A stretch of DNA of 64,000 bases from Nannocystis bainbridge (GTDB lineage: Bacteria > Myxococcota_A > Polyangia > Nannocystales > Nannocystaceae): the NCBI RefSeq assembly GCF_028368995.1, contig NZ_JAQNDL010000002.1, forward strand, positions 481,724 to 545,723, given 5' to 3'. The notes below the pieces were generated by a model. It saw nothing but the letters and a program-made list of their open reading frames with translations, ran no database searches and had not been told where the DNA came from. This document shows, piece after piece, positions 15,115 to 62,010 of the stretch. The first letter of the stretch is position 1. Every line of letters begins with the position of its first letter. The translations under genes and the position numbers were made by a program.

Positions 15115-15290
15115 ATCGCGGGCCTTCGGGGCCCTTTCTCGAGGGACAAGTCGAGGCGTGCCGGATCTTCGCGGCGCGAGGCGCCGAGCGGCCGACGCGG
15201 GCTTGTCGCGGCTCGGTGATCACCGGTGGTGATGCGCGGCGAAGATCATCGCGGGCCTTCGAAAACCTGTCTCGAGGGACATGTCGATTT
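15115..15290. repeat. Direct repeat (about 45 bp x2) containing CATG-core palindrome variants (TCGAGGGACAAGTCGA / TCGAGGGACATGTCGA)
   Basis: 'ATCGCGGGCCTTCG...CTCGAGGGACA(A/T)GTCGA' appears at about 15115-15158 and again at 15246-15290. Confidence 0.6.
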
Positions 15291-15323
15291 GCGGGCCGCT
15301 CGCGGGGCCGCGCCCGGCCTCAT

Positions 15324-15342
15324 TGTAAACTCCCGGTTTACA
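15324..15342. promoter_or_regulatory. Perfect 7-bp inverted repeat TGTAAAC-N5-GTTTACA, candidate regulator-binding site upstream of the 15417 gene
   Basis: AT-rich dyad in a 70% GC background, about 75 bp upstream of the start codon. Confidence 0.3.
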
Positions 15343-15416
15343 GCGCAGCCAATGCAAGATCGCTTCCTTCTGCCTCGCGGCCGCGTCATCGTCGAGGTGG
15401 GAGGATGGTTTTGGAC

Positions 15417-16016
15417 ATGACCTTAAAGACATCTCATCACGAGCACGCCCTGAGGACCGCGGCGGGGTTGGTCGGACGGCCGCGGCTGCGGTTCGGGCTG
15501 ATGTTGACGCTGGTCGCCGCCTGCGGGCCCGGCCTGGGCGAGGGCAGCGACGGCGCGAGCGATGGTTCGACGGCCACCACCGGGGCCGACGCGGCCACGC
15601 TGGCGACCACGAGCGCTGGCGCGAGCGCGACCGGCGACGACGCTTCGACGGGGGAGGCGACCACGACGGCGACGACCAGCGGCGAGGCGAGCACCACCAC
15701 CGGCGCCGACACGCTGCTGACCGACGCCACGACCTTCGCCACCACCACCTCGACGAGCTCGGGCACCAGCGAGACCGGCGAGACCACCGGCGAGACCACC
15801 GGCGATACGACCGGCACTGATACCGACACCGGCACCAGCACCGGCGAGCTCGACGACTGCGTCGATCGGCGCTCCGGCGAGATCGATTTCCGGTGCTGCG
15901 AGGCCCAGGACTGGCGGCCGCAGCCGCAGTGCACCCCGTGGGGTCCGCCGGCGCCGCCGGCCGCGGGGCACGATCGCCTGCAGCGGGCGCGGGCGGCCCG
16001 CGGGAGGTTCGTATGA
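15417..16016 (+). CDS. Hypothetical lipoprotein with a Thr/Ser-rich linker
   Basis: GGGAGGA RBS upstream. 'LMLTLVAACG' lipobox. Cys-containing C-terminal segment. Stop overlaps the next ATG (ATGA). Confidence 0.5.
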   Translation: MTLKTSHHEHALRTAAGLVGRPRLRFGLMLTLVAACGPGLGEGSDGASDGSTATTGADAATLATTSAGASATGDDASTGEATTTATTSGEASTTTGADTLLTDATTFATTTSTSSGTSETGETTGETTGDTTGTDTDTGTSTGELDDCVDRRSGEIDFRCCEAQDWRPQPQCTPWGPPAPPAAGHDRLQRARAARGRFV

Positions 16017-16843
16017 CAAGCCTCGATCTGCGCGGCGCGGCCGACCGCGCCGACCTGCGGCTCGGCGCTGGCGCGCTGGCGGGCCTCGACGAATTCGATC
16101 GTCAGTCGGCGATCCTCACCTGGCGCGGGCGCATGCTCAACGAGCACGTCTCGGCCCGCGTGTTCTCGACGCTGGCGCGCCAGCTCGAGCGCGCGGGCGT
16201 GCGCGGCGATCGCCCGGCCCGCGTCGGGGCGATGGTCGCCGAGGAGTGGCGCCACGCCGATCGCTGCGCCGCGGTCGTCGAGGTGCTCGGCGGCGATCCG
16301 GTGGTCGCGCTGCCGGCCCTGCCGCCGGTGCCCGAGCACGAGGACGCGGACGCGATCGAGGCGGTGCTGCGCAACGTGATCAGCGTGTCGTGCCTGAGCG
16401 AGACGGTGGCGGTGGCGCTGATCGACGCCGAGCGGCGCGCGGCCGGGCCGCCGGCGCTGCAGCGGCTGCTGGCGGAGATCCTCGCCGACGAGGTCGGGCA
16501 CGCGCGGTTCGGCTGGCGGCTGGTCGAGGAGTACGCGCCCTCGCTGTCGCCGACCCTGCGCGAGCGCCTCGGCGACTACCTGGTGATCGCGCTCGACGAC
16601 CTGGCGACCCACGAGCTGTCGCACTTGCCGGCCCGCCCGAGCCCGTCGAGCGCGGCGGAGGCGGTCGGGGTGTGCGACGGCCACGCGGCCCGCCGGCTGT
16701 TCTTCGCCACGGTGAACGAGGTCATCGTGCCGGGCCTGGAGGCGTCGGGGCTGCCGGCTCTGTCGGCGTGGCGCGCGGCGCAGGAGCTCGGCGCCTGGGC
16801 GAGCGCGCAGAAGGTCGACCCGCGGGCCCGCATGACCGCCTGA
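16013..16843 (+). CDS. Ferritin-like diiron-carboxylate family protein
   Basis: Two ExxH motifs ('VAEEWRHA', 'LADEVGHARF') in helical context. Translationally coupled to the upstream lipoprotein gene. Confidence 0.5.
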   Translation: MTSLDLRGAADRADLRLGAGALAGLDEFDRQSAILTWRGRMLNEHVSARVFSTLARQLERAGVRGDRPARVGAMVAEEWRHADRCAAVVEVLGGDPVVALPALPPVPEHEDADAIEAVLRNVISVSCLSETVAVALIDAERRAAGPPALQRLLAEILADEVGHARFGWRLVEEYAPSLSPTLRERLGDYLVIALDDLATHELSHLPARPSPSSAAEAVGVCDGHAARRLFFATVNEVIVPGLEASGLPALSAWRAAQELGAWASAQKVDPRARMTA

Positions 16844-16865
16844 GCGCGGCGATCGAGGGGGCGAG

Positions 16866-17175
16866 TCGACGTGTCGCGGCGGACATGTCGTCGCTGAAGG
16901 TGCGCGAAGGGACATGTCGTGACGGGCATGTCCTTTCGTGGTTCAGCGGACATGTCCTCGCAGAAGGTGGCGAATGGACATGTCGTAAAGGGCATGTCCG
17001 TTCGTGCTGCAGCGGACATGTCGGCGCAGAAGGTGTGCGAATGGACATGTCGTAAAGGGCATGTCCTCTCGTGGTTCAGCGCGCGCTGGACGGCCGTCGC
17101 GGTCACCTTCATGGACATGCCCGATCGGGCATGTCCTCGGGAGCATGTCCGTATCGACATGTCCGCGAGGACATG
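16866..17175. repeat. Array of CATG-core palindromes (GGACATGTCC family) containing a 67-bp higher-order tandem repeat x3 (16881-17080)
   Basis: Three near-identical 67-bp units of the form [GGACATGTCN-(18 nt)-GGACATGTCGTNAAGGGCATGTCC-(15 nt)]. Five further palindromes follow up to 17175. Lies between convergent genes. Confidence 0.85.
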
Positions 17176-17183
17176 CCGCTTCG

Positions 17184-18107
17184 TCAGGCGATCGGCGTGC
17201 GCGCCAGCTCGCCGGCCAGGGCGCGGTAGACCGCCTGGCGGGGGTCGTGGTCGCGGTACAGCAGGCGGAAGTAGTCGATCAGCAGGGCGACGCCGGGGAA
17301 CAGGCGGCGCAGGCGGCCGGCTCGCAGCTCGGCCTCGATCAGGTAGAGCGGCAGCACGGCGACGCCCTCGCCGGCGAGCACCTGGACCTTGACGGCGGCG
17401 CCGAGGCCGAGCCAGCGGTGGCCGCCGAAGCGGGGCAGGGCCGGGGCCGCGGGGGCGCCGCTGAAGTAGTGGAAAAGGGGCGTGCGGGCGTCGATGTCGA
17501 GCAGGACGTGGCGCGGGACGTCCTCGGGGCGGGTCAGCGGCAGGCGGTCGAGCAGCTCGGGCGCGCCGACGAACGCGTAGCGCTCCTCGTGCAGGCGCTC
17601 GGCCAGCAGGCGGCTGTCCTCGAGCTTGGCCGAGGTGACGGCGCAGTCGACCAGGCCGCTGCGCAGGCGGTCGACGATCTCCTGACCTGACCCGAAGAAC
17701 AGGTGCATCGTCACCCGCGGCAGGGCGGCGCGCAGCTGCGGCAGGGTGGGGACGATCCACGACATGCCGAGCTCGAAGCGGGTGCCGAGGGTGAGCTCGA
17801 TCGGCGGCGGGTCGTCCTCGCCGCGGACCACGCGGACGCACGCGGCCGCCTCGCCGAGGCAGGCGCGCGCGCGCGGCAGCAGCGACAGGCCGGCGTCGGT
17901 GAGGCGCACCGAGCGGGTGGTGCGGACGAACAGGCTCGCGCCGAGCTGCTGCTCGAGCAGGCGGATCCGCTGACCGACGGCGGCGGGGGTCAGGGCGAGC
18001 GCGCGGGCGGCTGTCCTGAAGTTCAGGTGCTCGGCGGCGGCGACGAAGCAGCGCAGGCTGTCGATCGCGGGCAGGTCGCTGGCGGCCGGCGGCGCGGGCC
18101 GGTTCAC
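17184..18107 (-). CDS. LysR-family transcriptional regulator
   Basis: N-terminal HTH 'LRCFVAAAEHLNFRTAARALALTPAAVGQRIRLLEQQLGASLFVR' and LysR substrate-binding region. GTG start overlaps the stop of the upstream gene. Confidence 0.75.
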   Translation of the reverse strand: MNRPAPPAASDLPAIDSLRCFVAAAEHLNFRTAARALALTPAAVGQRIRLLEQQLGASLFVRTTRSVRLTDAGLSLLPRARACLGEAAACVRVVRGEDDPPPIELTLGTRFELGMSWIVPTLPQLRAALPRVTMHLFFGSGQEIVDRLRSGLVDCAVTSAKLEDSRLLAERLHEERYAFVGAPELLDRLPLTRPEDVPRHVLLDIDARTPLFHYFSGAPAAPALPRFGGHRWLGLGAAVKVQVLAGEGVAVLPLYLIEAELRAGRLRRLFPGVALLIDYFRLLYRDHDPRQAVYRALAGELARTPIA

Positions 18108-19222: not shown

Positions 19223-19471
19223 ATGCCCACGTCCGACCCGATGCAGCGGCTGGCCTCGCGGGGCGTCGCCGCGGCCGCCGTGATGGTCCTCCTCGGCGGC
19301 GCCGCCCTGCTCGCCCTCGAGAGCTGCGCCCAGACCGGCGGCAGCAAGCCGATCCAGGCGGCCGAGCCCCGCCCCGCGCAGGACCCGGGCCCCGCGCCGC
19401 AGCCCGAGCCCGAGCCGCAGCCGGATCCGATCGTGCCCCGTCCAGAGGACCACCCGCCGCCGGTGACGTGA
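19223..19471 (+). CDS. Small proline-rich lipoprotein (PQPEPEPQP repeats)
   Basis: 'VMVLLGGAALLALESCA' signal, then a P/Q/E-rich tail. Paralogue of 19631..19936. Confidence 0.5.
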   Translation: MPTSDPMQRLASRGVAAAAVMVLLGGAALLALESCAQTGGSKPIQAAEPRPAQDPGPAPQPEPEPQPDPIVPRPEDHPPPVT

Positions 19472-19487: not shown

Positions 19488-19575
19488 AAAGGACATGTCC
19501 ATGAGGACATGCCGCAAAGGGCATGTCTCCACGGACTTGTCCATGAGGACATGTCGTTTCAGGCATGTCCTCCGG
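19488..19575. repeat. CATG-core palindrome cluster (6 units)
   Basis: GGACATGTCC, GACATGCC, GGCATGTC, GGACTTGTCC, GACATGTC, GGCATGTCC at about 15-bp spacing, 17 bp after a stop codon. Confidence 0.8.
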
Positions 19576-19941: not shown

Positions 19942-20964
19942 ATGCGGGAGCCTGCGCACGAGCCCCACGGATCTGCCGACTGGCTCCGCGGGCCGCGCTT
20001 CGATCTTTCGCTGATCGTCGGCGTGCTGGCGCTGGCGCTGGTGCTCGGCGGGGCGGCGTGCGCCTCGCCGGCGCTGTTCGCCGCGGTGCTCGCCCTCGAC
20101 TTCTGGCTGCTGGCCTACCCGCACGCGGCCTCGACCTTCACGCGCATCGCGTTCGATCGCCAGGCGGCGCGCGCCCACGGATTCTTGCTGTTCGGGCTGC
20201 CGCTGCTGGTGTTCGCGGGCACGGCCGGGGCGGTGGCGCTCGGCGGAGTGCTCGCGCTCAACACGATCTACTTCTATTGGCAATCGTGGCACTATACCCG
20301 CCAGAGCTACGGGATCGCCCGCGCCTATCACCGCCATGCAGGGGCCGATCCGGGGGGTGATCGGCTCAGTGATCTGGTGGTGTTCGCCTGGCCGCTGTGG
20401 GGCCTGCTGCACCGCGCGCACCAGGAGCCGCGGCTGTTCTACGGCGGGCCGATCTGGATGCCGCCGGCGCCGCGGTTGCTGGTGATCGTCGCCGGGGCGC
20501 TGGCCGTCGGGGCGCTGGCGCTGTGGACGGTCCGGCACGTGCGAGCTGCCGGCGCCGGCCGGCCGCGCAGCACCGGGCACGCGCTGTTCGTGCTGTCGCA
20601 CGTGGTGATCACGGCGGTCAGCTACCTCGTGGTCCGCGAGATCACCCTCGGCTGGCTCTTCATCAATATCTGGCACAACGCGCAGTACCTGCTGTTCGTG
20701 TGGGCGATGAACGCCCGCCGGTTCCGCGGCGGGATCGACCCGCGCCGGCCGTTCCTGTCGCGCCTGTGCCAGCCCGACCAGGTGCTGCGCTATGTGCTGG
20801 TGTGCCTGGCGCTGTCGTCGGCCTTCTACTTCGCGCTCGGGCAGGCGACGGGGCGGATGACGTGGGAGGTGCTGCCGCTGGTGCTGGTGTGCCATCAGAC
20901 TGTCAACTTTCACCATTACGTGGTCGACGCGGTGATCTGGCGCTCGCGCGGCCGGGCCGCATGA
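19942..20964 (+). CDS. Hypothetical polytopic integral membrane protein
   Basis: About 8 hydrophobic segments, Trp/Tyr-rich loops. Coding GC3. Confidence 0.6.
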   Translation: MREPAHEPHGSADWLRGPRFDLSLIVGVLALALVLGGAACASPALFAAVLALDFWLLAYPHAASTFTRIAFDRQAARAHGFLLFGLPLLVFAGTAGAVALGGVLALNTIYFYWQSWHYTRQSYGIARAYHRHAGADPGGDRLSDLVVFAWPLWGLLHRAHQEPRLFYGGPIWMPPAPRLLVIVAGALAVGALALWTVRHVRAAGAGRPRSTGHALFVLSHVVITAVSYLVVREITLGWLFINIWHNAQYLLFVWAMNARRFRGGIDPRRPFLSRLCQPDQVLRYVLVCLALSSAFYFALGQATGRMTWEVLPLVLVCHQTVNFHHYVVDAVIWRSRGRAA

Positions 20965-21045
20965 TGCTTGGGGCATGCCTGATGAGTCATGTCCTCGAGG
21001 GCATGTCTCGCGGGGCATGTCCCGGAGGTCATGCCTCGTCGAGCG
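20955..21045. repeat. CATG-core palindrome cluster overlapping the ends of two convergent genes
   Basis: GGCATGCC, GTCATGTCC, GGCATGTC, GGGCATGTCC, GTCATGCC. Confidence 0.75.
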
Positions 21046-23120: not shown

Positions 23121-23494
23121 GGTCGGTGGTCGTGATCGTCGGGTTGCTGCTGGGCGGCTGCGGGCGCGGCGAACCGGCGCCGAGCCGGCCGGGTGGCGAG
23201 GCGGCGGGGAGCGTGGACGCGGCGGGGGCGACGAGGTCGGTGGACCCGGCGGCCACGATCCCGGATACGGTGTCGACCGCGGGCGAGGCCGCGAGCGGCG
23301 AGGGGCCGCCGGCGCAGCAGCGAGGCGTCGACGGTCGCTGCGAGCCGACGCCGAAGTCCGGCGCGCCGTGCCGCGAGGGCGACGGGTACTGCGTGCTGTC
23401 GTGGGGCGAGCCGGGCGGCCACAGCGAGGCGCTGTGGTGCCGCGGCGGGCGCTGGGTGCTGGAGCAGGAGGTCAACCTGCCGCGCGGCGGCTGA
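23117..23494 (+). CDS. Small lipoprotein; GTG start overlapping the upstream stop (GTGA)
   Basis: 'VVVIVGLLLGGCG' lipobox. 125 aa. Confidence 0.45.
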   Translation: MRSVVVIVGLLLGGCGRGEPAPSRPGGEAAGSVDAAGATRSVDPAATIPDTVSTAGEAASGEGPPAQQRGVDGRCEPTPKSGAPCREGDGYCVLSWGEPGGHSEALWCRGGRWVLEQEVNLPRGG

Positions 23495-23502
23495 TCGCCG
23501 GG

Positions 23503-23585
23503 GACATGTCGCAGAGGACATGTCCGAACGGGAATGACCTCGACGACATGCTCTATGGAGCATGTCCTGATGGACATGTCGAAGT
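23503..23585. repeat. CATG-core palindrome cluster
   Basis: GACATGTC, GACATGTCC, GGAATGACC, GACATGC, GCATGTCC, GGACATGTC starting 9 bp after a stop. Confidence 0.75.
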
Positions 23586-25107: not shown

Positions 25108-25199
25108 GCGCGGACAGGCGAGTCGGTGCGGCAGGCGGGCCGCGAGTGACTTGAGGCATCCGTGCTCGCGGCGCGCGGGCGCGCGAGGGCTGGCGGGGC

Positions 25200-26375: not shown

Positions 26376-26431
26376 GGTCGCATTGACAGGGCGCGGCGCG
26401 GTCGGTAGGAACCAGGGCTCGCCCGCCCGCC

Positions 26432-27124
26432 ATGACGATCGCATCGACGCTGCTTGACGAACTCGAGGCGCGGATGATCGCGCTGCCGGCGGCGTCGGTG
26501 ACCCTGCGCGACGAGGGCTCGAAGACGAACTGGAGCGTCGCGGTGGCGGCGTTTCGCCTGGCGGCGGTGCCGGTGACCCGCGAGCTGTACGCGGCGGTGC
26601 ACGGCGAGGCGCCGCCGTCGCCTGCGGGGCCGCGCACGCCGGTGACCGAGGTGTCGTGGAACGACGCGGTCCGGTTCTGCAACGCGCTGTCGCTGCAGGC
26701 GGGGCTGCGGCCGTGCTACGCGATCGGCGGCGACCCGGAGGCGCGCGACGTGACGTGCGACCCGGCGGCGGGCGGCTACCGCCTGCCGTCGGAGGCGGAG
26801 TGGGAGTACGCGTGCCGGGCTGGGACGACGGGCGAGCGCTATGGCGAGCTCGACGCGATCGCGTGGCACCGCGACAACTCGGGCGGCGCGCCGCACGAGG
26901 TGGCGACCCGCGAGCCCAACGCGTGGGGCTTCTTCGACACGATCGGCAACGCCTGGGAGTGGTGCTGGGACGTCTACGATCCGAAGGTCTACGGGCCGTA
27001 TCGGGTGTTCCGCGGCGGGGGCTGGAACGACCGCCCGCGCGGCCTGCGGGCCTCGTGCCGGCGCAAGAGCCACCCGACCTTCCGCGTCGACGACCTCGGA
27101 TTTCGCGTGGCGCGCTCGATCTGA
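26432..27124 (+). CDS. Formylglycine-generating-enzyme (FGE/SUMF1/EgtB-type) domain protein
   Basis: 'WEYACRAGT', 'GNAWEWCWD', 'RGGGWNDRPRGLRASCR', 'GFRVARS' match the FGE-sulfatase domain. Confidence 0.75.
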   Translation: MTIASTLLDELEARMIALPAASVTLRDEGSKTNWSVAVAAFRLAAVPVTRELYAAVHGEAPPSPAGPRTPVTEVSWNDAVRFCNALSLQAGLRPCYAIGGDPEARDVTCDPAAGGYRLPSEAEWEYACRAGTTGERYGELDAIAWHRDNSGGAPHEVATREPNAWGFFDTIGNAWEWCWDVYDPKVYGPYRVFRGGGWNDRPRGLRASCRRKSHPTFRVDDLGFRVARSI

Positions 27125-27140
27125 GGCGATCGGCTGGCGA

Positions 27141-27240
27141 AATGGACATGTCCTTGGGGACATGTCATTCTTCGGAGTCGGGGCCGCGTGAACGTGGTTC
27201 CTGGTGGACATGACTGTTTCGACATGTCCCAAGAGACATG
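27141..27240. repeat. CATG-core palindrome cluster
   Basis: GGACATGTCC, GGACATGTCA, GGACATGAC, GACATGTCC, GACATGG starting 17 bp after a stop. Confidence 0.8.
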
Positions 27241-27330
27241 GGCGGTGCAGCACGGACGCGCGCCTCCTGGGTCCACGGGCGGCGTGCGATCGCGGCGCGC
27301 GATGGGCGAGTCATGGGCTATGCTCGGAAG

Positions 27331-29121: not shown

Positions 29122-29349
29122 CGGCAGGCGCCGAGCTGCCTCGTCGTCGATCGCGGCGGTGACGGGCGGCCCGGCGGGTGGCCATGCACGAAGCGTCGCA
29201 GTTCCGGAGACGGACGGATGTCGGGCTGGCCACGCGGCGCGCCCGTGATCGCCGACACGCCCTGCGGAGACGGACGACCCGCGCCCCGGCCACTGCAACG
29301 ATCAGGGGCGCGAGCGCGGGTCGGCGGAGCGATCGGCGGCGGGCGTCGC

Positions 29350-29395: not shown

Positions 29396-29418
29396 CGCGG
29401 CGGCGCGGAGGTGCGGTC

Positions 29419-35014: not shown

Positions 35015-35100
35015 TGTCTCGTGAGACATGCATGAAGGGACATGTCCTCGGGTTTATGCGCATAAGCGCAGGTACGAAGGGACATGTCCTCGGGTTCATG
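35015..35100. repeat. CATG-core palindrome cluster with a duplicated 'GAAGGGACATGTCCTCGGGTT' unit flanking a TTTATGCGCATAA palindrome
   Basis: GACATGCATG, GGGACATGTCC x2. Starts 9 bp after the stop of the 34803 gene. Confidence 0.8.
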
Positions 35101-35220
35101 TGCCGGGGTACAGGCGCTGACCTCGGCGGGCAGCCACGGCGCGGGCCGCTAGTTCGGCCCAGCGGACGGCTTCTCGAACACCACGGCGCCTTCTTTGACG
35201 ACCCGCGACCACGTTGTGGG

Positions 35221-36525
35221 CTAGTTCGGCCCGGCGGACGGCTTCTCGAACACCACGGCGCCTTCTTTGACCACCGCGACCACGTTGTGGATGTGCTCGA
35301 TCTGCGACAGGTCGCCGTCGATCACCACGAAATCGGCCAGGAACTCGGGGCGGATCGCGCCGATGCGGTCGTCGGCTCGCAGCAGCTTGGCGGCGTCGGT
35401 GGTGGCGGTGGCGAGCGCCTCCATCGGCGTCATGCCGACGTCGTGGACGAACACGTCGAGCTCGCGGGTGCTCTCGCTGAAGGCGGTGTAGACGGCGTCG
35501 GAGCCCATGACGATGGTGACGCCGGCGGCGTGGGCGGCCCGGGCGGTGGCGACGTTGTCGGCGATGAATGCGTCGAAGGCGGCCCGCTTGTCGGGGGAGA
35601 AGCCGAAGCGCTCGATGTTGTCGCGGTAGTAGCGGTTGTGATGGATGGTCGGCACGTAGGCGACGCCGCGCTCGCGCATGGCGGCGAGGGTCTCGGGCGA
35701 GAGCGTGCGCGGGTGCTCGACGCTGTCGGCGCCGGCGCGCACGATGTCGGGGGTGACGGTGCCGAGGGTGTCGTGCACGGCGACGGGGATGCCGTGGGCG
35801 TGGGCGATGTCGACGGCGGTCTTGATCTCGTCGAAGGAGTAGGTGCGCTCGCCGGTGAGGTCGTCGTCGCTGCCGGTCGAGGCCCACAGCTTGACGACCT
35901 TGACGCCGGCGGCGATCTCCCGCCGCACGGTGGCGGCGACCTGCTCGGTGCCGTCGGCCTGGCCGGGGCGTGTCGACTCCGTGGGCGTGAGCCGCGACGA
36001 CCACACGCCATCGGCGGCGCCGAAGATCCGCGGGCCGACGAGCTCGCCGGCCTCGATGCGCGCGGCGGTCTCGAGGTCGAGGTGATTGTCGGAGCCGAGG
36101 TCGCGGATGGTGGTGACGCCGAGCGAGAGCAGGGTGCGGCCGTTGGCCTCGACCAGCGGGACGAGGCGGTCCTTGGGCTGGGAGATCTGGAACGGGTCGT
36201 TCGGGGCGCGCTCGCCCCACGCGGGATCCCAGCAGAAGGTGATGTGCGTGTGGGCGTCGATGAGGCCGGGGATCGCGGTGTAGCGGCCGTGGTCGACGAC
36301 GCGGGCGCCGGCCGGCAGCGGCTCGCCGGCCGCGAGCACGCTGTGGAAGCGCTTGCCCTCGACGACGACGGCGCCGCCCTCGACGACCTGGTGCGGGGCG
36401 GTGACGACGCGCGCGAACTTGTAGACGGTGAGGCTGGAGGCGGGGATGTCCGCAGGGACAGGTCGGTCGGGGACCGCCTGCTCGGGCTTGCAGCCGAGGC
36501 CGGTCGCGGCGAGGAGGCCGAGCAT
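35221..36525 (-). CDS. Amidohydrolase-family metal-dependent hydrolase, lipoprotein
   Basis: 'GLIDAHTHI' metal-binding HxH motif, 'DAVYTAF', 'VAVHD'. 'MLGLLAATGLGCK' lipobox. Confidence 0.7.
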   Translation of the reverse strand: MLGLLAATGLGCKPEQAVPDRPVPADIPASSLTVYKFARVVTAPHQVVEGGAVVVEGKRFHSVLAAGEPLPAGARVVDHGRYTAIPGLIDAHTHITFCWDPAWGERAPNDPFQISQPKDRLVPLVEANGRTLLSLGVTTIRDLGSDNHLDLETAARIEAGELVGPRIFGAADGVWSSRLTPTESTRPGQADGTEQVAATVRREIAAGVKVVKLWASTGSDDDLTGERTYSFDEIKTAVDIAHAHGIPVAVHDTLGTVTPDIVRAGADSVEHPRTLSPETLAAMRERGVAYVPTIHHNRYYRDNIERFGFSPDKRAAFDAFIADNVATARAAHAAGVTIVMGSDAVYTAFSESTRELDVFVHDVGMTPMEALATATTDAAKLLRADDRIGAIRPEFLADFVVIDGDLSQIEHIHNVVAVVKEGAVVFEKPSAGPN

Positions 36526-42149: not shown

Positions 42150-42197
42150 ATGACTTTTCAGTCATGTTCGCGGGGACATGTCCTTTGCAGCTTCTCG
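42150..42197. repeat. CATG-core palindrome cluster
   Basis: GCATGAC, GTCATGTTC, GGGGACATGTCC immediately downstream of the stop of the vWA gene (minus strand). Confidence 0.7.
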
Positions 42198-54348: not shown

Positions 54349-54361
54349 GGACGAGTCCCGA

Positions 54362-54395
54362 AGGACATGTCGTAAAGGGCATGTCCTTGGGGGCT
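54362..54395. repeat. CATG-core palindrome pair, identical to units in the 16.9-kb array
   Basis: GGACATGTCGTAAAGGGCATGTCC begins 14 bp after the stop at 54348. The same 24-mer occurs at about 16978 and 17045. Confidence 0.85.
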
Positions 54396-54515
54396 TGTGA
54401 TTGGGGCTCCCGAACGACGCGAGGTGAAGTGGTTGTGGCGGCGAGCCGCGAAGCGGGCGGCTCCCGCGCGCGTGGCCGTGCGAAACTTCGCGGGTGGCGG
54501 GGCGTTCGCAAGGGC

Positions 54516-54965: not shown

Positions 54966-56201
54966 ATGATGACGGCTCTCCTGCGCGAGCGAGCGCGCGC
55001 GCGAGGCCGAAGGAGCGACATCGTGAGCGTGTCCGTCAACCCTCCCAAGACGCCGGTGACCGCGGGCAGCAGCGGCGTGGCCGCCGCGACGGTGCCGAAC
55101 GTGTGCAAGATGCCCGGGCCGCCGGCGCCGTTCGTGCCGACGCCGCTGCCCAACATCGGCAAGAGCGGCGACTCGCCGAAGGGTTATTCGCAGCAGGTCC
55201 GGATCGCCGGCAAGAAGGTGGCGATCAAGGGCGCGAGCTTCGGCTCGACCGGCGACATGGCGAGCAAGGCGACCGGCGGCGGGATCGTGTCGAACAACAC
55301 GCACGGGCCGACGAAGTTCGTCGGGCCCGGATCGATGGACGTCAAGATCGAGGGCAAGAACGTGCAGCTGCTGAGCGACCCGATGCTCAACAACTGCGGA
55401 CCGAGCGGGACGCCCGCGAACGCGGCGACGCTGCTCGGGGTGATCCAAACCAGCGGGATGGTGACAGCGGTGGAAGCCGGGCCGTGCCCGATCTGCGAGA
55501 AGAGCCACGGAGAGCTGAGCGAGTCGCCGCAGACGAAGCTCGACGCAGGGGGGCTGGCTGCGAGATTCGAGGCGGAGGTCCGGCCGATCATCGACGAGGT
55601 GGAGGCGCGAGGCCCGGACGACAAGCTGCCCGTGAGCACGATGCTCGGAATCGTGGCGTGCAAATGCGGGAAGAAATACGCGGACCAGTCGGCGGCGACG
55701 ACCATCGAGTTCTGCAAGGCAGCCGAGGGGATGAAGCACCCGGCGGACGTGACGCTGTCGTATCGCCACGGAAGGCCGGTGCTCGACAGGGCCTATCTGG
55801 AGTCTCTCAAGACGGTGCGGGAGCGGATCGGCGCGCACCTCGGGAACTCGCCGCTCTTTCGCGAGACCTGGGAGGATGCCAGTCAGCGCGCTGCAGAGAG
55901 TGACAGGCAGCGGTCGGGGCCAGCCGCTTACCCGCCCGGCACTTGCGCAGCGCAGAAGACGCTCCTGTTGCTGATGGACGACGGCGCCCTGGCGGCGGCG
56001 ATGACGGAGAAGTGGTACAGCAGCAGGAAGAGCAAGACGCAGGCGCCGATCCGGTATGTGGATGCTCGCGGCGGCGCGCGTATGGAGGTCGTCGCAAAGT
56101 TCAAGCACGGCGACACGGTGCCGCCCTGCGGGGCATGCGAGCTGCTCGTGCCGTTGCTGCTCTGCGCGGGAGGTAAGGCGGAATGCGAACACAAGAGCTA
56201 G
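54966..56201 (+). CDS. Polymorphic toxin: N-terminal PAAR-like DUF4150 domain (T6SS-effector type) plus Cys/His-rich C-terminal putative toxin domain
   Basis: 'VSVNPPKTPVTAGSSGVAAATVPNVCKMPGPPAPFVPTPLPNIG...GSTGDMASKATGGGIVSNNTHGPTKFVGPGSMDVKIEGKNVQLLSDPMLNNCG' matches the DUF4150/PAAR-like architecture. C-terminus has 'CPICEKSHGE' and 'PPCGACELL' zinc-ligand-like motifs. Confidence 0.65.
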   Translation: MMTALLRERARARGRRSDIVSVSVNPPKTPVTAGSSGVAAATVPNVCKMPGPPAPFVPTPLPNIGKSGDSPKGYSQQVRIAGKKVAIKGASFGSTGDMASKATGGGIVSNNTHGPTKFVGPGSMDVKIEGKNVQLLSDPMLNNCGPSGTPANAATLLGVIQTSGMVTAVEAGPCPICEKSHGELSESPQTKLDAGGLAARFEAEVRPIIDEVEARGPDDKLPVSTMLGIVACKCGKKYADQSAATTIEFCKAAEGMKHPADVTLSYRHGRPVLDRAYLESLKTVRERIGAHLGNSPLFRETWEDASQRAAESDRQRSGPAAYPPGTCAAQKTLLLLMDDGALAAAMTEKWYSSRKSKTQAPIRYVDARGGARMEVVAKFKHGDTVPPCGACELLVPLLLCAGGKAECEHKS

Positions 56202-56938
56202 AGCCGGAGATGGAAGCGCTGTACCGCAGCCTCGTGCCTGACTTCGAAGCGCAGGTGGTCGGGGCGACGGAAGGCGAGGTGGAACATATCGAGGCGCTCG
56301 CCGGTCGGCCCTTGCCGCGGTTCTATCGCTGGTTCTTGCTGCGCATGGGAGGCCATATGGGCCCCTTCGAGTATCCGACGATCGACTTCACGGCCAAGGC
56401 GGTGCTCGCTGCCTATTCCAAACGGCTTGTTCATCCGGATTCGCGGTTCCTGATGATTGGCCATGAGGGGGACGAGATGATGCCCCTGCACGTGTTCTAC
56501 GATCTCGATTGCCTTGCACGGGACGATGCTCGCGTGACCAAGAACCACGTGCTCGGCGGCGAATTTCACCATCAGTTCGAGACCCTGCGAGAGATGTTCG
56601 CGTGGGGAAATGTCCTGGCGCTGCACGTCGAGGAGCTCGGGCAACGTTGCGTCGGCAACTTCTATGATCCCGAAGGCGATGTCCTGGCGCGCCTCGTGCC
56701 CGTCCTGACCAACCTCGGCTTCGCCAGCCCGATTGCGACCGGCTCGCATTGCGGCTTGTTTCGCGGACCGCGAGGGGCCGTGGTGACTCGCGCCACTCCC
56801 GGTCTCGAGACCGATATTCACACGTTTCGCATGGGCGCCGCCGATGCGGGCGGCCTGCGCCGGATCCTGGGCGCGATCGCTTGCGAGACGGCCCTGAAGG
56901 TCAACGTGAGAGAATGGTTCCCTCCGCTTGCGCCATAG
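56183..56938 (+). CDS. SUKH (SMI1/KNR4)-family putative immunity protein (true start may be the ATG at 56210)
   Basis: 'VEHIEALAGRPLPRFYRWFLLRMGG' resembles the SUKH N-terminal motif. Gene overlaps the 3' end of the toxin gene, as in toxin-immunity pairs. Confidence 0.5.
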   Translation: MRTQELEPEMEALYRSLVPDFEAQVVGATEGEVEHIEALAGRPLPRFYRWFLLRMGGHMGPFEYPTIDFTAKAVLAAYSKRLVHPDSRFLMIGHEGDEMMPLHVFYDLDCLARDDARVTKNHVLGGEFHHQFETLREMFAWGNVLALHVEELGQRCVGNFYDPEGDVLARLVPVLTNLGFASPIATGSHCGLFRGPRGAVVTRATPGLETDIHTFRMGAADAGGLRRILGAIACETALKVNVREWFPPLAP

Positions 56939-58839: not shown

Positions 58840-58988
58840 CGGCGAGTCTGTCCTGAAGGACATGTGCCTCGTCCCGCCGGGCTTCGAGCGCTCCGCCGGT
58901 GCATCGGCGCGCGGTTCGGCCCACCTCGCTCTACCGAGGTTCGCTGGCCGCGATTGCGCGTCCGTGGCATCTTGAGCGAGAGGTCGTG

Positions 58989-60104
58989 ATGCGAGTCCTG
59001 CACGCCATTCGCACCCCGTGGGCGCCCTATTCGCTGATGTTCGCCAACGACGGGACGCGGCTCGCGGTCGGGGGCGGGGCCTGGTACGGGGAGGGTGGGA
59101 TCTCGCTCGCGCGCCTCGACAGCGGGGAGGTGGCGGTCACGCCGATGGGGCCGCAGCGCGGCTACGGGCCGCCGTCGGTCGCCGGTGTCTATTTTTCGGC
59201 CGACGATCGCTACCTGGTGGCGGTGACCCGTGGATCGAGCTTGGGGCCGGGTCCGACGATCCTGTTCGCCGTCGACGGGCTGTCGATCGGCCGCGCGGCC
59301 GCGTTCGAGCCCGCCGGACAGCGGAGGATGGGAGACCCCTGCGCGACGGGGGCGATGATGGCGGGCGAATCGACGATCGTGCGCCACTGGGCGAGCTCGG
59401 TCGAGCAGTGCATCGCCGTGCGGCGGTTCTCGCCGCGCTTCGCCTGCCGCGCCGACGATCGCCGGCATCACCTCACGCACAGCCGCGTGGTGGTGCGGCG
59501 CGGGCGGGCGCTCACCGGCGGCGGCGGCTCGCTCGCGCTGGCCGAGTGGCGCGCGGACAGCGGGTTGCGCGAGTCGGGGAGAGCCGCAGAGGGATTGATC
59601 TCGGCGCCGCTCGCCGGCGAGGGGCCGTGCGAGACCATCCCCATCGAAGGTTGTCCGCGGGTGACGGCGATCGCGGCGCTGCCGGGCGAGGACGGGTTTC
59701 TGACCGGCGGCCTGCGGGGCGAGCTCGATCGCTGGTCGTGGGCCGAGACGCTGCGACAGGAGCGGCTGGCGGTCCCGGGCGCGCCGCTCGCGAACATCGA
59801 GCCGGCGCTGCCGACGACGCCGAAGGTGCAGGAGGCTGTGGCGGCGTTGGCGTGGGCGACGTACACCCGCGACAGCGTGGTGGCGATCTGCACGCTGCAC
59901 GACGAGACGCGGTGGGTCAGCGTCGACGCGGGCGGGCGGCTGCGGCTGTGGCAGGGCGCGCAGCAGCTCGGGGCGTGGACGCTGCCGGCTCCGGGCACGC
60001 CGAGGTCGCTGGCCGCCCACCCGAGCGAGCCTTGGATCGCGGTGGGCATCAAGCAGGGCGGCTTCGGCCACCCGAGCTCGCTGGTGCTGGTCCTGGAGCT
60101 CTGA
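58989..60104 (+). CDS. Hypothetical cytoplasmic protein, possibly WD40/beta-propeller-like
   Basis: 371-aa ORF with coding GC3 and repeated 'RLAVGGG / LVAVT / WVSVDAGGRLRLW' strand-like segments. Confidence 0.45.
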   Translation: MRVLHAIRTPWAPYSLMFANDGTRLAVGGGAWYGEGGISLARLDSGEVAVTPMGPQRGYGPPSVAGVYFSADDRYLVAVTRGSSLGPGPTILFAVDGLSIGRAAAFEPAGQRRMGDPCATGAMMAGESTIVRHWASSVEQCIAVRRFSPRFACRADDRRHHLTHSRVVVRRGRALTGGGGSLALAEWRADSGLRESGRAAEGLISAPLAGEGPCETIPIEGCPRVTAIAALPGEDGFLTGGLRGELDRWSWAETLRQERLAVPGAPLANIEPALPTTPKVQEAVAALAWATYTRDSVVAICTLHDETRWVSVDAGGRLRLWQGAQQLGAWTLPAPGTPRSLAAHPSEPWIAVGIKQGGFGHPSSLVLVLEL

Positions 60105-60139
60105 GCGCCGAGGCTCGTCGGCGACGGACGACGCGGATG

Positions 60140-60215
60140 ACATGGCGATTCGGACATGCTTATTCGAGCATGTCCGAATCGACATGGTTTCGAGGGCATG
60201 TCCTTCGGGACATTC
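60140..60215. repeat. CATG-core palindrome cluster including a perfect 28-bp palindrome TCGGACATGCTtattcGAGCATGTCCGA
   Basis: GACATGGC, GGACATGC, GCATGTCC, GACATGGT, GGCATGTCC, GGACATTC between convergent genes. Confidence 0.8.
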
Positions 60216-60309
60216 GACGCTCGCGGCGAGAACGAGCCGAGGAGCAGGTCGTGCTGGCCCTTGGAGCTCTTGGGGCCGCCGCCGCGGGTCGCGGGCGCGA
60301 CGACGGGCG

Positions 60310-61671
60310 TCACGCAGGATCGGTGACGCGGCCGTAGAACAGCAGCACGCCGCTCCGCACGTCGCGGATGTAGAACAGGAACGGGCGGTCGACCAGGAAC
60401 GGGGTCGGGCTGGTCGGTGCGCCGCCCACGGCGATCTCGATCGCGCTGGGCGGCGAGCCGTCGGCGCCGCGCTCCTCGACGGTGAGGCGCGCCCGGTGGT
60501 GCACGGCTTCGAGCGCCAGCTTCTTCTCGCTGGCCATCGCGTCGAGCTCCGCGCGGCGGGCGTCGAACACCCGCGCGGCCCCGAGCTTGGCGACCACCGG
60601 GGCCAGGTCGAGGGTGCTGTCGAGGCTGAAGCGCGGCATTTGGAGGTCGATCGGGGCCGGCTTGGCGGCGTCGATCCAGCCCTGCAGCCGCTCGTAGTCG
60701 AAGCCCTTCTCGACGTCCTCGAGGCCGCCGCGGGTCGAGGGCAGGAGGATGATCATGCTGTACTCGCCGCCCCGGTACGGCAGCTCGAGCAAGCGCAGCT
60801 TGCCGGCCAGGCCCAAAGTGGTGGAGAGGCGCTGGACGCTGCGCATCATCGGCACCGGCTCCTTGCGTTGGTGGCCGTAGAACAGCACCGGCTCGGTCGC
60901 CTTCGGGTCGAAGGGCTCGAGCCAGTCGGCCTTGAAGGCGGCGACGTCGGTGACGAGCAGGCGGGTGGCGGCGGTCAGGGCCTCGGGGCTGAGGATCTGG
61001 TCGATCGCGGCGTCGGTCTCCTCGCGGGCCCAGCCGTTGATGTGATCGCGCGCGCCGACGAGGTCGCCGGCGAAGTCGAGCGTGCCGAGCGGCGATGCGA
61101 AGACCTTGCGGGTGAGGTCGAGGTACTCGGGCTTGAAGTCGTGGCTGCGATCGCCGAACACCCGGCTGGCGGTGACGAGGCTGACGTGAGCGCTGGGGTG
61201 ATTCCAGCGAGCGGCGAGGTGGGCCAGGGCGGTGTGGACATCGCCGGTCAGGCCGTCGAGGTGGAGGACGTCGGCCAGTTCGCGCTCGGTGGCCCCGCTG
61301 GCGCCGGCGTGCAACATCGCCAGGGCGACCGAGACGCTCATGCCCGAGAAGAGCAGGTTGCCGGGCTGCTTGGCGAGCTTGCGCTGGAGGTCGATGGTGA
61401 GCTCGTTGATGCTGCGACCGAGAGCCTGCTTGAGCTCGGCGTTGTGGCCCTTGACGACCGGCGCAGGCGCGGGCTTGACCGGCTCGGAGGGCGGGGCCTC
61501 GGCGGCGAGCACGGTCCTGTCGGCGGCCGGCGTGGGGGTCGGCGGCGCGGTGGGGATGGCGGCCGGGGCGGCGACGGTGGCGAGCGGGGCGGGCTCCGAG
61601 GGCGCCGCCGTGGTGTCGCAAGCGACCAGGGCGACGCAGACGAACAAGAGGCGGGGGTCTCGCTGCGACAT
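60310..61671 (-). CDS. Serpin (serine protease inhibitor) family lipoprotein
   Basis: C-terminal serpin signature 'FLVDRPFLFYIRDVRSGVLLFYGRVTDP'. Hinge/reactive-centre-loop region 'GADGSPPSAIEIAVGGAP'. 'LLFVCVALVACD' lipobox. Confidence 0.75.
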   Translation of the reverse strand: MSQRDPRLLFVCVALVACDTTAAPSEPAPLATVAAPAAIPTAPPTPTPAADRTVLAAEAPPSEPVKPAPAPVVKGHNAELKQALGRSINELTIDLQRKLAKQPGNLLFSGMSVSVALAMLHAGASGATERELADVLHLDGLTGDVHTALAHLAARWNHPSAHVSLVTASRVFGDRSHDFKPEYLDLTRKVFASPLGTLDFAGDLVGARDHINGWAREETDAAIDQILSPEALTAATRLLVTDVAAFKADWLEPFDPKATEPVLFYGHQRKEPVPMMRSVQRLSTTLGLAGKLRLLELPYRGGEYSMIILLPSTRGGLEDVEKGFDYERLQGWIDAAKPAPIDLQMPRFSLDSTLDLAPVVAKLGAARVFDARRAELDAMASEKKLALEAVHHRARLTVEERGADGSPPSAIEIAVGGAPTSPTPFLVDRPFLFYIRDVRSGVLLFYGRVTDPA

Positions 61672-61944
61672 GAAGAAGGATGGTGCCGCAAGTCGCCGCG
61701 CACGAGCGCGCCTGCGAGGGGCTGTCGCCTGGCAGGACGGCGACGGGGGGCTGCGCGCCCAGGCGCGGGCGACAGGGCGCCAGGTCACCGGACTCAGCCG
61801 CGCGCGGCCATCGTGCGTGGGGGCGTGCAGCCTCGAAGGTCGCGATTGCGCGTGCGGCCGCCGGGCCTTTTAAACGGCCGATCGGGGCCGATCCGGGTGA
61901 TCGCGCCGTGAGGACCTCGGCGTGGGATCATGGCTTTTTGGACA

Positions 61945-62010
61945 GGTTGAGGCGAGCGGGAAGACCTGGCCTTCTGGACATGCTGTCTCATGGGACATGT
62001 CGATCGTCGG
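61945..62010. repeat. CATG-core palindrome cluster (degenerate)
   Basis: GGACAGGT, GACCTGGCC, GGACATGC, GGGACATGTC immediately downstream of the stop of the 62013..62999 gene (minus strand). Confidence 0.6.

Follow-up and report, generated by a model that had tools for sequence, protein, structure and literature searches.

The window, a stretch of 64,000 nucleotides of Nannocystis bainbridge DNA, harbors a dispersed family of short palindromic repeats that is non-random and extragenic, is restricted to the genus Nannocystis and is apparently undescribed so far. With moderate confidence, it is read as a genus-specific REP/BIME-like family whose hairpins would serve as bidirectional transcript 3'-end elements. 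The building block is the near-palindromic decamer GGRCATGYCC with a spacer of exactly 4 nt and of variable sequence. The gaps between successive units, drawn from the window and 76 Nannocystis loci, are 14 bp (174 cases), 28 bp (34), 42 bp (9) and 13 bp (2), with none of 15–17 bp, and the true period is therefore exactly 14 bp instead of the approximately 15 bp of the initial annotation. Of 178 multi-unit arrays, 122 are two-unit modules, the most frequent form, and the working module is a pair of adjacent units with a 9–11 bp stem closed by a tetraloop, as indicated by covariation between units and anti-correlation within them; the stem is often lengthened by flanking bases. The decamer is self-complementary, so that transcripts of both strands form the same hairpin, and several folding registers are available to longer arrays.

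GGRCATGYCC occurs 16 times in the window against 0.38 expected, a number reached by 0 of 100 shuffles, which bears out the over-representation claimed at the outset, and exact GGACATGTCC matches amount to 7, where at least 8 had been counted before, against 0.06 expected from shuffles. The CATG-centred decamers with at most one mismatch from the consensus number 47, and 43 of them fall within the non-coding 13% of the window (43 units per 8.5 kb), a 70-fold difference in density between non-coding DNA and CDS. The remaining 4 lie in CDS and are all isolated one-mismatch decamers. A pair with two mismatches within a kinase ORF (38208-38231) is probably not a member of the family. True in-CDS copies are rare in other Nannocystis genomes, rimM being an example, and a methylmalonyl-CoA mutase-like gene possibly carries a further one.

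The clusters at 16.9, 17.1, 19.5, 21.0, 23.5, 27.2, 35.0, 42.2, 54.4, 60.2 and 62.0 kb were graded strong, and those at 15.1-15.3, 29.4 and 58.9 kb weak or degenerate (Table 1). On a redrawn gene map, the clusters begin 7–48 bp past a stop codon, except those at 15.1-15.3 and 29.4 kb, in agreement with the stop-proximal placement, and its two exceptions, noted in the initial annotation. The arrays comprise 102 in convergent, 41 in tandem and 6 in divergent gaps, and in tandem gaps the median distances are 20 bp from the preceding stop and 217 bp to the next start. With ascertained gaps removed, and with a crude codon-usage caller supplying the gene maps of the comparison loci, arrays occupy 17/41 convergent (41%), 16/254 tandem (6%) and 4/71 divergent gaps (6%). 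The family prefers above all convergent gaps (odds ratio 10.8, p = 8e-9), where a frequent placement between convergent genes had been remarked from the window alone.

Table 1. Repeat arrays and associated duplications in the window (positions are those of the window).
Position	Strand	Feature	Context and folding
15115..15286	.	two degenerate modules of type CCTGTCTCGAG-GGACATGTCG (eroded unit, spacer, good unit)	far from stop; variant type also present in locus L028
16770..16808	+	diverged duplicate of the 17184-17213 segment (alignment)	17184-17213 is the ferritin-like/LysR 3' overlap region in relatives; the two copies flank a ~340-bp repeat-filled insert
16881..17066	.	nine-unit array; 67-bp higher-order tandem repeat, 3 copies, 88% matches, each with one lone unit and one unit-TAAA/TGAC-unit hairpin	convergent gap, ferritin-like gene (stop 16843)/LysR gene (stop 17184); 16905-16945 fold -23.2 kcal/mol, z = -5.5
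17113..17178	.	five-unit array, strict 14-bp register; spacers gatc, tcgg, gtat, gcga	nested hairpins on both strands, -41.5 and -41.3 kcal/mol, z = -4.4 and -4.6
19491..19570	.	six-unit array, 14-bp register; one unit degenerate (ggacttGTCC)	starts 20 bp past stop of small lipoprotein-like ORF (19241-19471); fold -55.3 kcal/mol, z = -7.8
20971..21036	.	five-unit array (frame plot)	fills whole gap from gene 19942-20964 (+) to minus-strand gene ending 21029; fold z = -5.0
23502..23581	.	six-unit array, one unit degenerate	convergent gap, 23126-23494 (+)/beta-lactamase-family gene 23677-25011 (-)
27144..27243	.	two unit pairs (27144/27158, 27206/27220) and degenerate unit at 27234	tandem gap; begins 20 bp after stop of FGE-sulfatase gene
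29358-29385, 33888-33912		degenerate modules similar to those at 15115..15286	upstream of genes
35024..35089	.	two perfect GGACATGTCC units 42 bp apart and a degenerate unit	convergent gap; follows DUF1918 gene
35148..35290	-	72-bp tandem duplication, 2 copies, 95% matches	duplicates 3'-terminal coding sequence and stop codon of amidohydrolase gene; adjoins 35.0-kb array
42160..42183	.	one perfect and one degenerate unit	29 bp downstream of stop of minus-strand gene ending at 42212
54363..54386	.	single hairpin module GGACATGTCG-TAAA-GGGCATGTCC, identical to modules at 16976 and 17043	15 bp past stop of gene 52348-54348
58858..58867	.	lone one-mismatch unit, weak member	19 bp past stop at 58839
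60138..60203	.	five-unit array, two units degenerate, 14-bp register	convergent gap, 58986-60104 (+)/serpin gene 60310-61671 (-); fold -40.1 kcal/mol, z = -7.5
61976..62002	.	two units (one two-mismatch, one one-mismatch) 17 bp apart, not the canonical 14	ends 11 bp downstream of stop of minus-strand gene 62013-62999

Covariation was observed between neighboring units: changes at position 8 are linked to changes at position 3 of the following unit (odds ratio 2.3, p = 0.0025), and changes at position 3 to those at position 8 of the following unit (odds ratio 3.0, p = 8e-5). Inside a single unit, positions 3 and 8 show the opposite, an anti-correlation with odds ratios of 0.46 and 0.29. For the 122 two-unit modules, none of 500 shuffles and none of the slid controls reached the observed covariation score or count of double-sided changes, and in an orthologous array a T-to-C change in one unit is matched by an A-to-G change in the unit it pairs with. 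RNA folds of both strands gave z values of about -3 to -9 in 11 of 12 stretches tested, upholding the hairpin proposed in the initial annotation, and only the short 42.2-kb stretch, folded alone, was not significant. The compound 24-mer GGACATGTCGTAAAGGGCATGTCC is indeed identical at its three sites (16976, 17043 and 54363), although the coordinates first reported were 2 bases off and its stem measures 9–11 bp, not 7 bp; a longer stem is seen at 54352-54400 (-34.6 kcal/mol, z = -8.9). As the co-variation runs between neighboring units and not within a unit, the hairpin is favored over a dimer-binding site, and the earlier alternative of an operator array is weakened by this pattern and by the location of the arrays at 3' ends rather than promoters. 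Template switching inside a palindrome can also give covariation of inverted-repeat arms without selection, which counts against the 3'-end reading.

The same data bear on a reading of the arrays as phased binding platforms. Under that reading, a sequence-specific protein would recognize the decamer, in duplex DNA or in the identical hairpin stem, and the sites might provide a transcriptional roadblock or insulator between convergent genes, a supercoil-absorbing site for gyrase or nucleoid proteins, or a site for a hairpin-processing enzyme. We regard such platforms as unlikely, because anti-correlated half-sites with co-varying neighbors are the opposite of independent symmetric dimer sites, arrays are almost missing from the promoter-containing divergent gaps, no candidate binding protein consistently encoded beside the arrays was found, and most multi-unit arrays are two-unit modules rather than long arrays. 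In their favor, rigid 14-bp spacing with free spacer sequence is typical of a geometric constraint of protein binding, one decamer consensus is shared by all sampled Nannocystis species and a related metagenome contig, a plain need for a hairpin would fix neither stem sequence nor loop length, and the BIMEs of E. coli bind gyrase and IHF.

As transcript 3'-end elements, the hairpins would be transcribed as the ends of 3' UTRs and would act in both directions; without need of a U-tract they may cause RNA polymerase to stall or terminate, like the hairpin-only terminators proposed for high-GC bacteria, and they may also block 3'-to-5' exonucleases. In E. coli, one REP has been shown to be both a partial terminator and an mRNA stabilizer, and the expression of both genes is higher where REPs lie between convergent genes (bioRxiv 10.64898/2026.03.23.713779). 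The sense strand of tandem gaps contains 55 G-U versus 32 A-C mispairs (p = 0.018), with 90 versus 89 in convergent gaps, a modest hint of action at the RNA level, although transcription-coupled C-to-T mutation of the non-template strand could yield the same asymmetry. Read in the sense direction, the arrays are not followed by a U-tract (T fraction 0.17), which weighs against the 3'-end reading and means that the arrays are not canonical intrinsic terminators; in line with the scarcity of such terminators supposed earlier, these are not enriched, 3 being found versus 3.2 expected in 20 kb. Hairpin function alone also leaves the conservation of stem sequence across loci and species and the rigid 4-nt loop unexplained, and the uniformity of the decamer over thousands of copies could reflect a RAYT-like hairpin-recognizing enzyme or concerted evolution among self-templating palindromes. 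Hairpin-only ('I-shaped') terminators have been reported in high-GC Actinobacteria, and TRIT is a conserved terminator motif of Mycobacterium tuberculosis. These resemble the Nannocystis repeats in being GC-rich stem-loops that lack a U-tract and lie a few tens of bases past stops, in genomes where canonical intrinsic terminators are scarce, and TRIT is likewise a repeated 3' element of conserved sequence; however, most 'I-shaped' hairpins are unique in sequence, TRIT is present in far fewer copies and lacks phased palindromic units, and termination by U-less hairpins alone is disputed.

Turnover is much faster in the arrays than in the DNA flanking them. Five relatives have a ~46-55 bp overlap of the ferritin-like and LysR genes, and in the window and locus L104 array-filled gaps of 320-340 bp with duplicated gene-end segments are found at this pair. 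Species differ in array density, with one array per 4.6 kb at the upper end and one per 32 kb at the lower. Comparison of orthologues gave differences at 36% of spacer sites, against 10.1% for units, 9.8% for other intergenic DNA and 5.4% for CDS; units diverge no slower than other intergenic DNA, which argues against strong purifying selection on each copy and tells against the 3'-end reading. Both perfect units of the 35.0-kb array are the same in two strains, with 13 differences in the surrounding ~110 bp, and the unit pairs of the 27.2-kb cluster are unchanged in the second strain (98.9% identical overall). Local tandem duplication involves modules of 67, 72 and about 116 bp, with gene-end sequence dragged along, and the arrays grow in this manner. 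Identical 24-bp modules at non-orthologous loci are very rare and neighboring spacers are mutually unrelated in sequence, so recent whole-module copy-and-paste is not evident.

These observed dynamics resemble those of semi-selfish repeat DNA, and the repeats might, though this is somewhat doubtful, be purely selfish or neutral: palindromic DNA of no host benefit, spread by a RAYT/IS200-like single-strand transposase, by fold-back or template-switch replication or by slippage, all hairpin-dependent, and surviving where insertions harm least, after stop codons and between convergent genes. Such an origin is consistent with the several-fold differences in copy density among species of one genus, the presence or absence of arrays at the same gene junction among close relatives, the local tandem amplification, the general intergenic rate of unit change and the rare in-gene copies (rimM and possibly the mutase-like gene), and purifying selection that removes insertions from promoters and CDS would produce just this positional bias. 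It fits less well with the rarity of identical non-orthologous modules beside unrelated spacers, with the two perfect units shared by strains inside an otherwise fast-diverging gap, and with ~40% occupancy of convergent gaps and gap-filling arrays, which are high for a merely tolerated passenger; furthermore, no transposase or RAYT/RayT homologue was found in the window, as first noted, or in ~730 kb of Nannocystis and related sequence (~1% of the genomes).

When 185,579 species genomes were scanned for the pattern, 90 loci were retrieved, 76 in Nannocystis and the others singletons. An Rfam search gave no match and a literature search no description of the family, in keeping with the initial failure to recognize the motif. 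The REP/BIME-type reading first offered is supported in part, as the repeats are extragenic, stop-adjacent and hairpin-forming. Like the REP/BIME elements of E. coli and other Gammaproteobacteria, they are short imperfect extragenic palindromes that number in the hundreds to thousands, lie downstream of stop codons and between convergent genes at locations that differ between strains and species, and are clustered in arrays whose adjoining copies are mutually complementary, with conserved stems and variable loops. Roles as partial terminators and mRNA 3' stabilizers are documented for REPs. Unlike REP/BIME elements, the unit is just 10 bp and itself a palindrome, so that only R/Y variants reveal its orientation, the period is a rigid 14 bp with a tetraloop of free sequence, GTAG-type heads and linker motifs are lacking, a RAYT has not been found so far, and the host is a 72% GC myxobacterium. 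With the REPIN-RAYT systems of Pseudomonas and E. coli, the family shares an inverted doublet making one hairpin as its commonest form, lineage-specific vertical inheritance and copy numbers that differ between related species; however, REPINs are about 70-110 bp, with two REPs of roughly 25 bp and a spacer conserved among copies, whereas the Nannocystis module is 24-30 bp, identical modules at different loci are rare and the defining RAYT gene has so far not been found.

A short, strongly over-represented, lineage-specific oligomer, often in inverted pairs downstream of genes, also recalls the uptake signals for natural transformation, Neisseria DUS and Haemophilus USS, which are likewise found as inverted pairs after genes. 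A role of the decamer as such a signal is highly improbable: DUS and USS are asymmetric and common within coding regions, whereas the Nannocystis motif is palindromic and ~70-fold depleted from CDS, its strict 14-bp arrays have no counterpart in uptake sequences, and we know of no competence in Nannocystis. Neisseria DUS pairs and Correia elements are similarly lineage-specific, and their inverted pairs form terminator-like hairpins after genes, but DUS are asymmetric, frequent within genes and tied to DNA uptake, and Correia elements are MITEs of 100-155 bp that carry terminal inverted repeats and target-site duplications.

The exact decamer GGACATGTCC was found seven times in the window (72% GC), against 0.06 expected from dinucleotide-preserving shuffles, which upholds the over-representation reported in the initial annotation but not its count of at least eight copies, and the form GGRCATGYCC was found 16 times (0.38 expected). 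With at most one mismatch to this consensus, 47 decamers centred on CATG were detected in the window, and the "invariant" CATG core previously described is partly true by construction, because the unit finder required CATG by definition. A gene map built with a codon-usage model, refined with six-frame plots and checked against Pfam divides the window into 55.5 kb of coding sequence, where just four of the 47 units occur, all of them isolated one-mismatch decamers, and 8.5 kb of non-coding DNA that contains the other 43, a 70-fold density ratio in keeping with the extragenic placement first described. Every cluster first listed is real, three of them (15.1-15.3, 29.4 and 58.9 kb) being weak or degenerate, and the compound 24-mer GGACATGTCGTAAAGGGCATGTCC does occur three times in identical form, at starts that correct those originally assigned (see table). 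Degenerate copies of the type (C/A)CTGTCTC-GAG/TCG-GG(A/C/T)CATGTC, at four places in the window and at a comparison locus, are situated upstream of genes rather than just past stop codons and resemble a good unit preceded by an eroded one, and related hairpins that lack CATG, CCTGTCC-N4-GGACAGG, were observed on the comparison contig L045.

In the printed clusters, a 10-bp unit and four variable bases are repeated head-to-tail, and Tandem Repeats Finder reported arrays of period 14 and period 28 in the window. Across the enlarged data set of the window and 76 Nannocystis loci, successive units were spaced by 14 bp in 174 cases, by 28 bp in 34, by 42 bp in nine and by 13 bp in two, with none at 15-17 bp, and the centre-to-centre spacing of about 15 bp proposed initially is thus replaced by a period of exactly 14 bp. 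Arrays in strict 14-bp register comprise two to six units, the 67-bp repeat at 16.9 kb having nine in a looser arrangement, and at the array ends there are usually eroded units without CATG, the consensus of alignment A2 being G.CC....[unit]....[unit]....C. The spacers are near-random in sequence, with GATC, GCGA, CGAG and TCTC in excess, and adjacent spacers display a mean identity of 1.20 of 4 and a mean reverse-complementarity of 1.15 of 4, compared with 1.08 for random pairs; since neighbouring spacers are therefore unrelated and non-complementary, both recent simple 14-bp slippage and a hairpin with CATG in its loop were rejected. Only nine 24-mers recur among the 277 adjacent pairs, mostly as local tandem copies or orthologues, and identical 24-bp modules (two adjacent units) are rarely carried by unrelated loci, so there is no sign of recent whole-module copy-and-paste, and the many near-identical copies of a whole doublet with its spacer that mark REPIN-RAYT systems are not seen.

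Coordinates of arrays, duplications, gaps and neighbouring features (window numbering unless a comparison locus is named)
Location	Strand	Feature	Detail
16976; 17043; 54363		Starts of the compound 24-mer	GGACATGTCGTAAAGGGCATGTCC
16879-17081		67-bp higher-order repeat	3 copies, 88% matches (Tandem Repeats Finder)
17113-17178		Array reading	GGACATGCCC gatc GGGCATGTCC tcgg GAGCATGTCC gtat CGACATGTCC gcga GGACATGCCG
16770-16808; 17184-17213		Diverged copies of a former overlap segment	One on each side of the array (alignment A1)
35148-35290		72-bp tandem duplication, 95% identical	3' end of amidohydrolase gene (35221-36525, minus), stop included; adjoins 35.0-kb array
16.8-17.2; 20.96-21.03; 23.5-23.7; 35.0-35.2; 60.1-60.3 kb		Convergent gaps	Filled or nearly filled by arrays
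4.97-5.13 (4971-5129); 9.40-9.77 (9403-9765); 31.39-31.50 kb		Convergent gaps	Without arrays
44.34-44.46 kb		Gap ahead of tRNA genes	Without arrays
44465-44548; 44588-44674	minus	Two tRNA genes	Sole Rfam matches in the window
15128-15152; 15262-15286; 29358-29385; 33888-33912; L028 6530-6620		Degenerate copies	(C/A)CTGTCTC type
L018 5575-5598 (N. punicea); L061 7793-7816 (N. exedens)		Perfect module GGACATGCCC gatc GGACATGTCC	In frame, RimM N-terminal domain coding region
L067 666-689 (Nannocystis sp. RBIL2)		One-mismatch unit pair	Within methylmalonyl-CoA-mutase-like ORF
L015 1355-7200 (N. pusilla)		About 5.8 kb of extra genes	Include a repeat-domain protein; window has a 233-bp gap (41973-42206) with the 42.17-kb units
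36750-41861	minus	Ser/Thr kinase-AAA16 ORF and GAF-HisKA-HATPase ORF (36818-38227)	In different frames
37880-37901		(GGC)7 run	Near coding-potential frame switch, about 37880-37960
54966-56201; 56210-56938		ORF with Tox-PAAR-like domain; small ORFs	A few hundred bases after the 54.36-kb module

Each unit is almost self-complementary and can therefore pair with the next one to form a 10-bp stem with a 4-nt loop, and the competing models were discriminated at the variable positions 3 (A/G) and 8 (T/C) of the 277 adjacent pairs. Covariation was observed between position 8 and position 3 of the next unit (odds ratio 2.3, p = 0.0025) and between position 3 and position 8 of the next unit (odds ratio 3.0, p = 8e-5), while the two positions of a single unit show anti-correlation (odds ratios 0.46 and 0.29). 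The variants GGACATGCCC and GGGCATGTCC, which are asymmetric, accordingly alternate as REPs do in a BIME. It is the complementarity between neighbouring units that is preserved, not the symmetry of the single decamer. For 122 distinct two-unit modules, the hairpin covariation score and the number of double-sided changes exceeded 500 of 500 shuffles and all slid controls, and the four flanking bases on each side paired somewhat more frequently than in the slid controls. The hairpin-forming ability foreseen for the compound units is borne out by this inter-unit covariation and by RNA folds on either strand, in which the stability of 11 of 12 stretches exceeded that of shuffles by 3 to 9 standard deviations; the short stretch at 42.2 kb gave no significant fold (z = 0.4), and the 54.36-kb module extended into a long stem of -34.6 kcal/mol. 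Pair-preserving changes were also seen in orthologous arrays, such as a T-to-C change in a unit matched by A to G in its partner, as well as G-U to G-C, and an ungapped count of compensatory changes in orthologous hairpins had very few usable sites.

When genes were called with the same codon model on the window and the 76 Nannocystis loci (674 kb), 102 multi-unit arrays fell in convergent gaps, 41 in tandem gaps and six in divergent gaps, and 14 apparently lay inside ORFs, most of them at the ORF margins, with a crude caller that over-extended some ORFs. In tandem gaps the arrays lie close behind stop codons, as first noticed, with medians of 20 bp from the upstream stop and 217 bp to the start that follows. 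Since each locus was found through one array, ascertained gaps were removed before occupancy was recounted, and arrays then occupied 17 of 41 convergent gaps (41%), 16 of 254 tandem gaps (6%) and 4 of 71 divergent gaps (6%), a roughly ten-fold preference for convergent junctions (odds ratio 10.8, p = 8e-9, convergent versus tandem plus divergent) that gives a measure to the remark that clusters often lie between convergent genes. Occupancy is patchy along the chromosome, because the first 15 kb (1-15000) are array-free despite two convergent gaps. Occurrences within coding regions were seen in rimM of two species, where the flanks of the in-frame module are conserved and a 9-bp indel lies close by, and possibly in the methylmalonyl-CoA-mutase-like ORF of Nannocystis sp. 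RBIL2, where about 65 residues appear to be inserted when the stretch is aligned to the Pfam profile.

The arrays are not canonical intrinsic terminators, because no T-run follows them in the sense direction (T fraction 0.17 in the next 8 nt), leaving their hairpins without a U-tract, and because a consensus scan of 20 kb for hairpin-plus-T-tract terminators returned three sites against 3.2 in shuffles, a result that also agrees with the suspected scarcity of canonical U-tract terminators, none being evident in the scanned region. Among stems in tandem gaps, read on the sense strand, 55 mispairs were of the G-U type and 32 of the A-C type (p = 0.018), compared with 90 and 89 in convergent gaps, whose two strands would both be transcribed; in this small sample the asymmetry agrees with RNA-level selection, with a transcription-associated C-to-T bias as the alternative. 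Myxobacterial genomes are large, very GC-rich and have few recognisable terminators, and hairpin-only terminators have been proposed in other high-GC bacteria. By analogy with those terminators and with REP elements, the array hairpins, which would be transcribed from either strand as the last part of 3' UTRs, probably act as bidirectional 3'-end elements, halting polymerase or exonucleases. Published work on REP elements describes a dual terminator/stabiliser role as well as an effect between convergent genes (bioRxiv 10.64898/2026.03.23.713779).

Local duplication and turnover make the repeat family change fast. Five relatives (L092, L094, L095/L096, L102/L103 and L106) have an overlap of about 46-55 bp between the ferritin-like gene and the convergent LysR gene, and in the window a 340-bp gap packed with units separates the two; overlapping genes have been pulled apart at this junction, each keeping its own copy of the overlap segment. 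At the same junction in L104/L105 a 320-bp gap holds three copies of a module of about 116 bp, each with units and a gene-end segment. Local tandem duplication is recurrent, as in the 67-bp repeat at 16.9 kb and the 72-bp duplication at 35.0 kb, the latter resembling the duplicated gene-end segments around the 16.8-17.2 kb array. Between orthologous loci of different species, 5.4% of sites differ in coding sequence, 9.8% in other intergenic DNA, 10.1% in units and 36% in spacers (p = 3e-10 for spacers versus other intergenic DNA), and the spacer divergence reflects either mutational hot spots in the loops or gain and loss of whole units that aligns non-orthologous ones. The Logan contig L001 shares 98.9% identity with window 24695-35191 and is thus taken as a second strain; between it and the window no change is seen in the unit pairs of the 27.14-kb array, nor in the two perfect units at 35038 and 35080, although the 110 bp or so around the latter hold 13 differences. 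A bidirectional 3'-end role accounts for neither the neutral-like substitution rate of the units, nor the stem identity across the genus, nor the rigid 4-nt loop, and for this reason two rival explanations are kept alive, namely a largely selfish palindromic repeat and a sequence-specific factor as reader or builder of the arrays.

Regarding a selfish or mobilised origin, no Pfam transposase domain was found in the window ORFs, in line with the earlier statement that no RAYT/Y1 transposase is present there, and searches with E. coli RayT (tblastn, phmmer) against about 730 kb of Nannocystis and related DNA, about 1% of the genomes, gave nothing better than E = 0.5, so a single-copy RAYT may lie in the remainder. 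No insertion sequence, terminal inverted repeat or target-site duplication structure was seen at the arrays, the adjacent duplications consisting of 30-116 bp of gene-end sequence, and in lacking terminal inverted repeats, target-site duplications and a related IS the arrays differ from MITEs. Clustering of the called proteins neighbouring arrays revealed no recurrent family beside them, only kinase-like and regulator-like paralogue clusters. We consider it unlikely that the arrays are the recognition platform of a Nannocystis-specific trans-acting factor reading GGRCATGYCC at a fixed 14-bp phase, whose target may be the decamer as duplex DNA or the same stem in hairpins of RNA or single-stranded DNA; such a factor would explain the fixed length and free sequence of the spacers, the genus-wide stem identity and the hypervariable loops, which a plain hairpin model does not. 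If true, it would mean a dedicated, sequence-addressed system that ends or insulates transcription between convergent genes or, alternatively, a new hairpin-processing enzyme that builds arrays unit by unit.

The arrays constitute a lineage-specific extragenic repeat family whose module is a hairpin between two adjacent decamers, and REP/BIME elements are the closest known kind, with which they share a short imperfect palindrome with a stable stem-loop, extragenic placement at gene 3' ends and convergent junctions with rarity in promoter regions, clusters of mutually complementary, alternating variants, and variable loops. They differ in having no GTAG/GT(A/G)G at the hairpin base, the flank profile showing a weak aaR...Ytt preference, and they vary the theme with a minimal 10-bp palindromic unit, a strict 14-bp phase and occurrence in a phylum for which no described REP-like family was found. 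From the DUS/USS uptake signals, which are asymmetric and occur also inside genes, the motif differs in being palindromic and strongly depleted in coding sequence. The initial impression that the motif belongs to no described repeat family is sustained, as Rfam 15 at the gathering score matched two tRNAs only in the window and not the arrays, the literature on GGACATGTCC yielded only p53 response-element papers and incidental primers, and no relevant published REPs, RAYTs or intergenic repeats were found for Nannocystis or myxobacteria.

The ferritin-like protein encoded in the window has 100% identity to an NCBI protein named from Nannocystis bainbridge. A pattern scan with GGRCATGYCCNNNNGGRCATGYCC across 185,579 species-representative genomes returned at least 90 loci, and 76 of the 90 matches listed were from Nannocystis, namely N. 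exedens, N. pusilla, N. punicea, N. radixulma, Nannocystis sp. RBIL2 and three metagenome-assembled genomes (MAGs), with the remainder of those listed being singletons in unrelated taxa at about the chance number. A scan of viral contigs gave four singleton matches, which is chance level, and metagenome contigs with 68-90% identical orthologues of one window gene nearly lacked the motif, one of them bearing a single motif pair, in a convergent gap. Two short contigs (L040 and L079; 69-70% GC), both from one MAG labelled Actinomycetota, carry one motif pair each and may be mis-binned Nannocystis-like DNA rather than independent occurrences. The window holds 14 arrays in 64 kb (one per 4.6 kb, all arrays counted) and the other loci 80 non-ascertained arrays in 610 kb, with non-ascertained densities of one per 5.8 kb in RBIL2 and N. 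pusilla, 9 kb in N. radixulma, 16 kb in N. punicea and 32 kb in N. exedens, which by arithmetic from the sampled loci rather than a whole-genome count extrapolates, according to species, to about 400-2,800 arrays in a genome of 11-13 Mb.

One motif at roughly 40% of convergent junctions provides a testable handle on transcript 3'-end formation in Nannocystis and could aid the annotation of operon ends, and for the engineering of Nannocystis strains that make natural products the arrays are candidate bidirectional terminator or insulator parts. For repeat biology they offer a minimal REP/BIME analogue and instances of gene-end remodelling by repeats, such as the un-overlapping of convergent genes, terminus duplication and the in-frame insertion in rimM, and the combination of a uniform stem with loops that are hypervariable in sequence but fixed in length raises the question of how short palindromic repeats arise and homogenise. 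Among the other features of the window, a repeat insertion at 38208-38231 splitting the kinase/GAF-histidine-kinase gene was considered and rejected, as the frame change sits near 37.9 kb, where the switch may represent a frameshifted fusion gene, a slippage-prone tract or a sequencing error, and the Tox-PAAR-like ORF with the small ORFs behind it may form a toxin/immunity pair.
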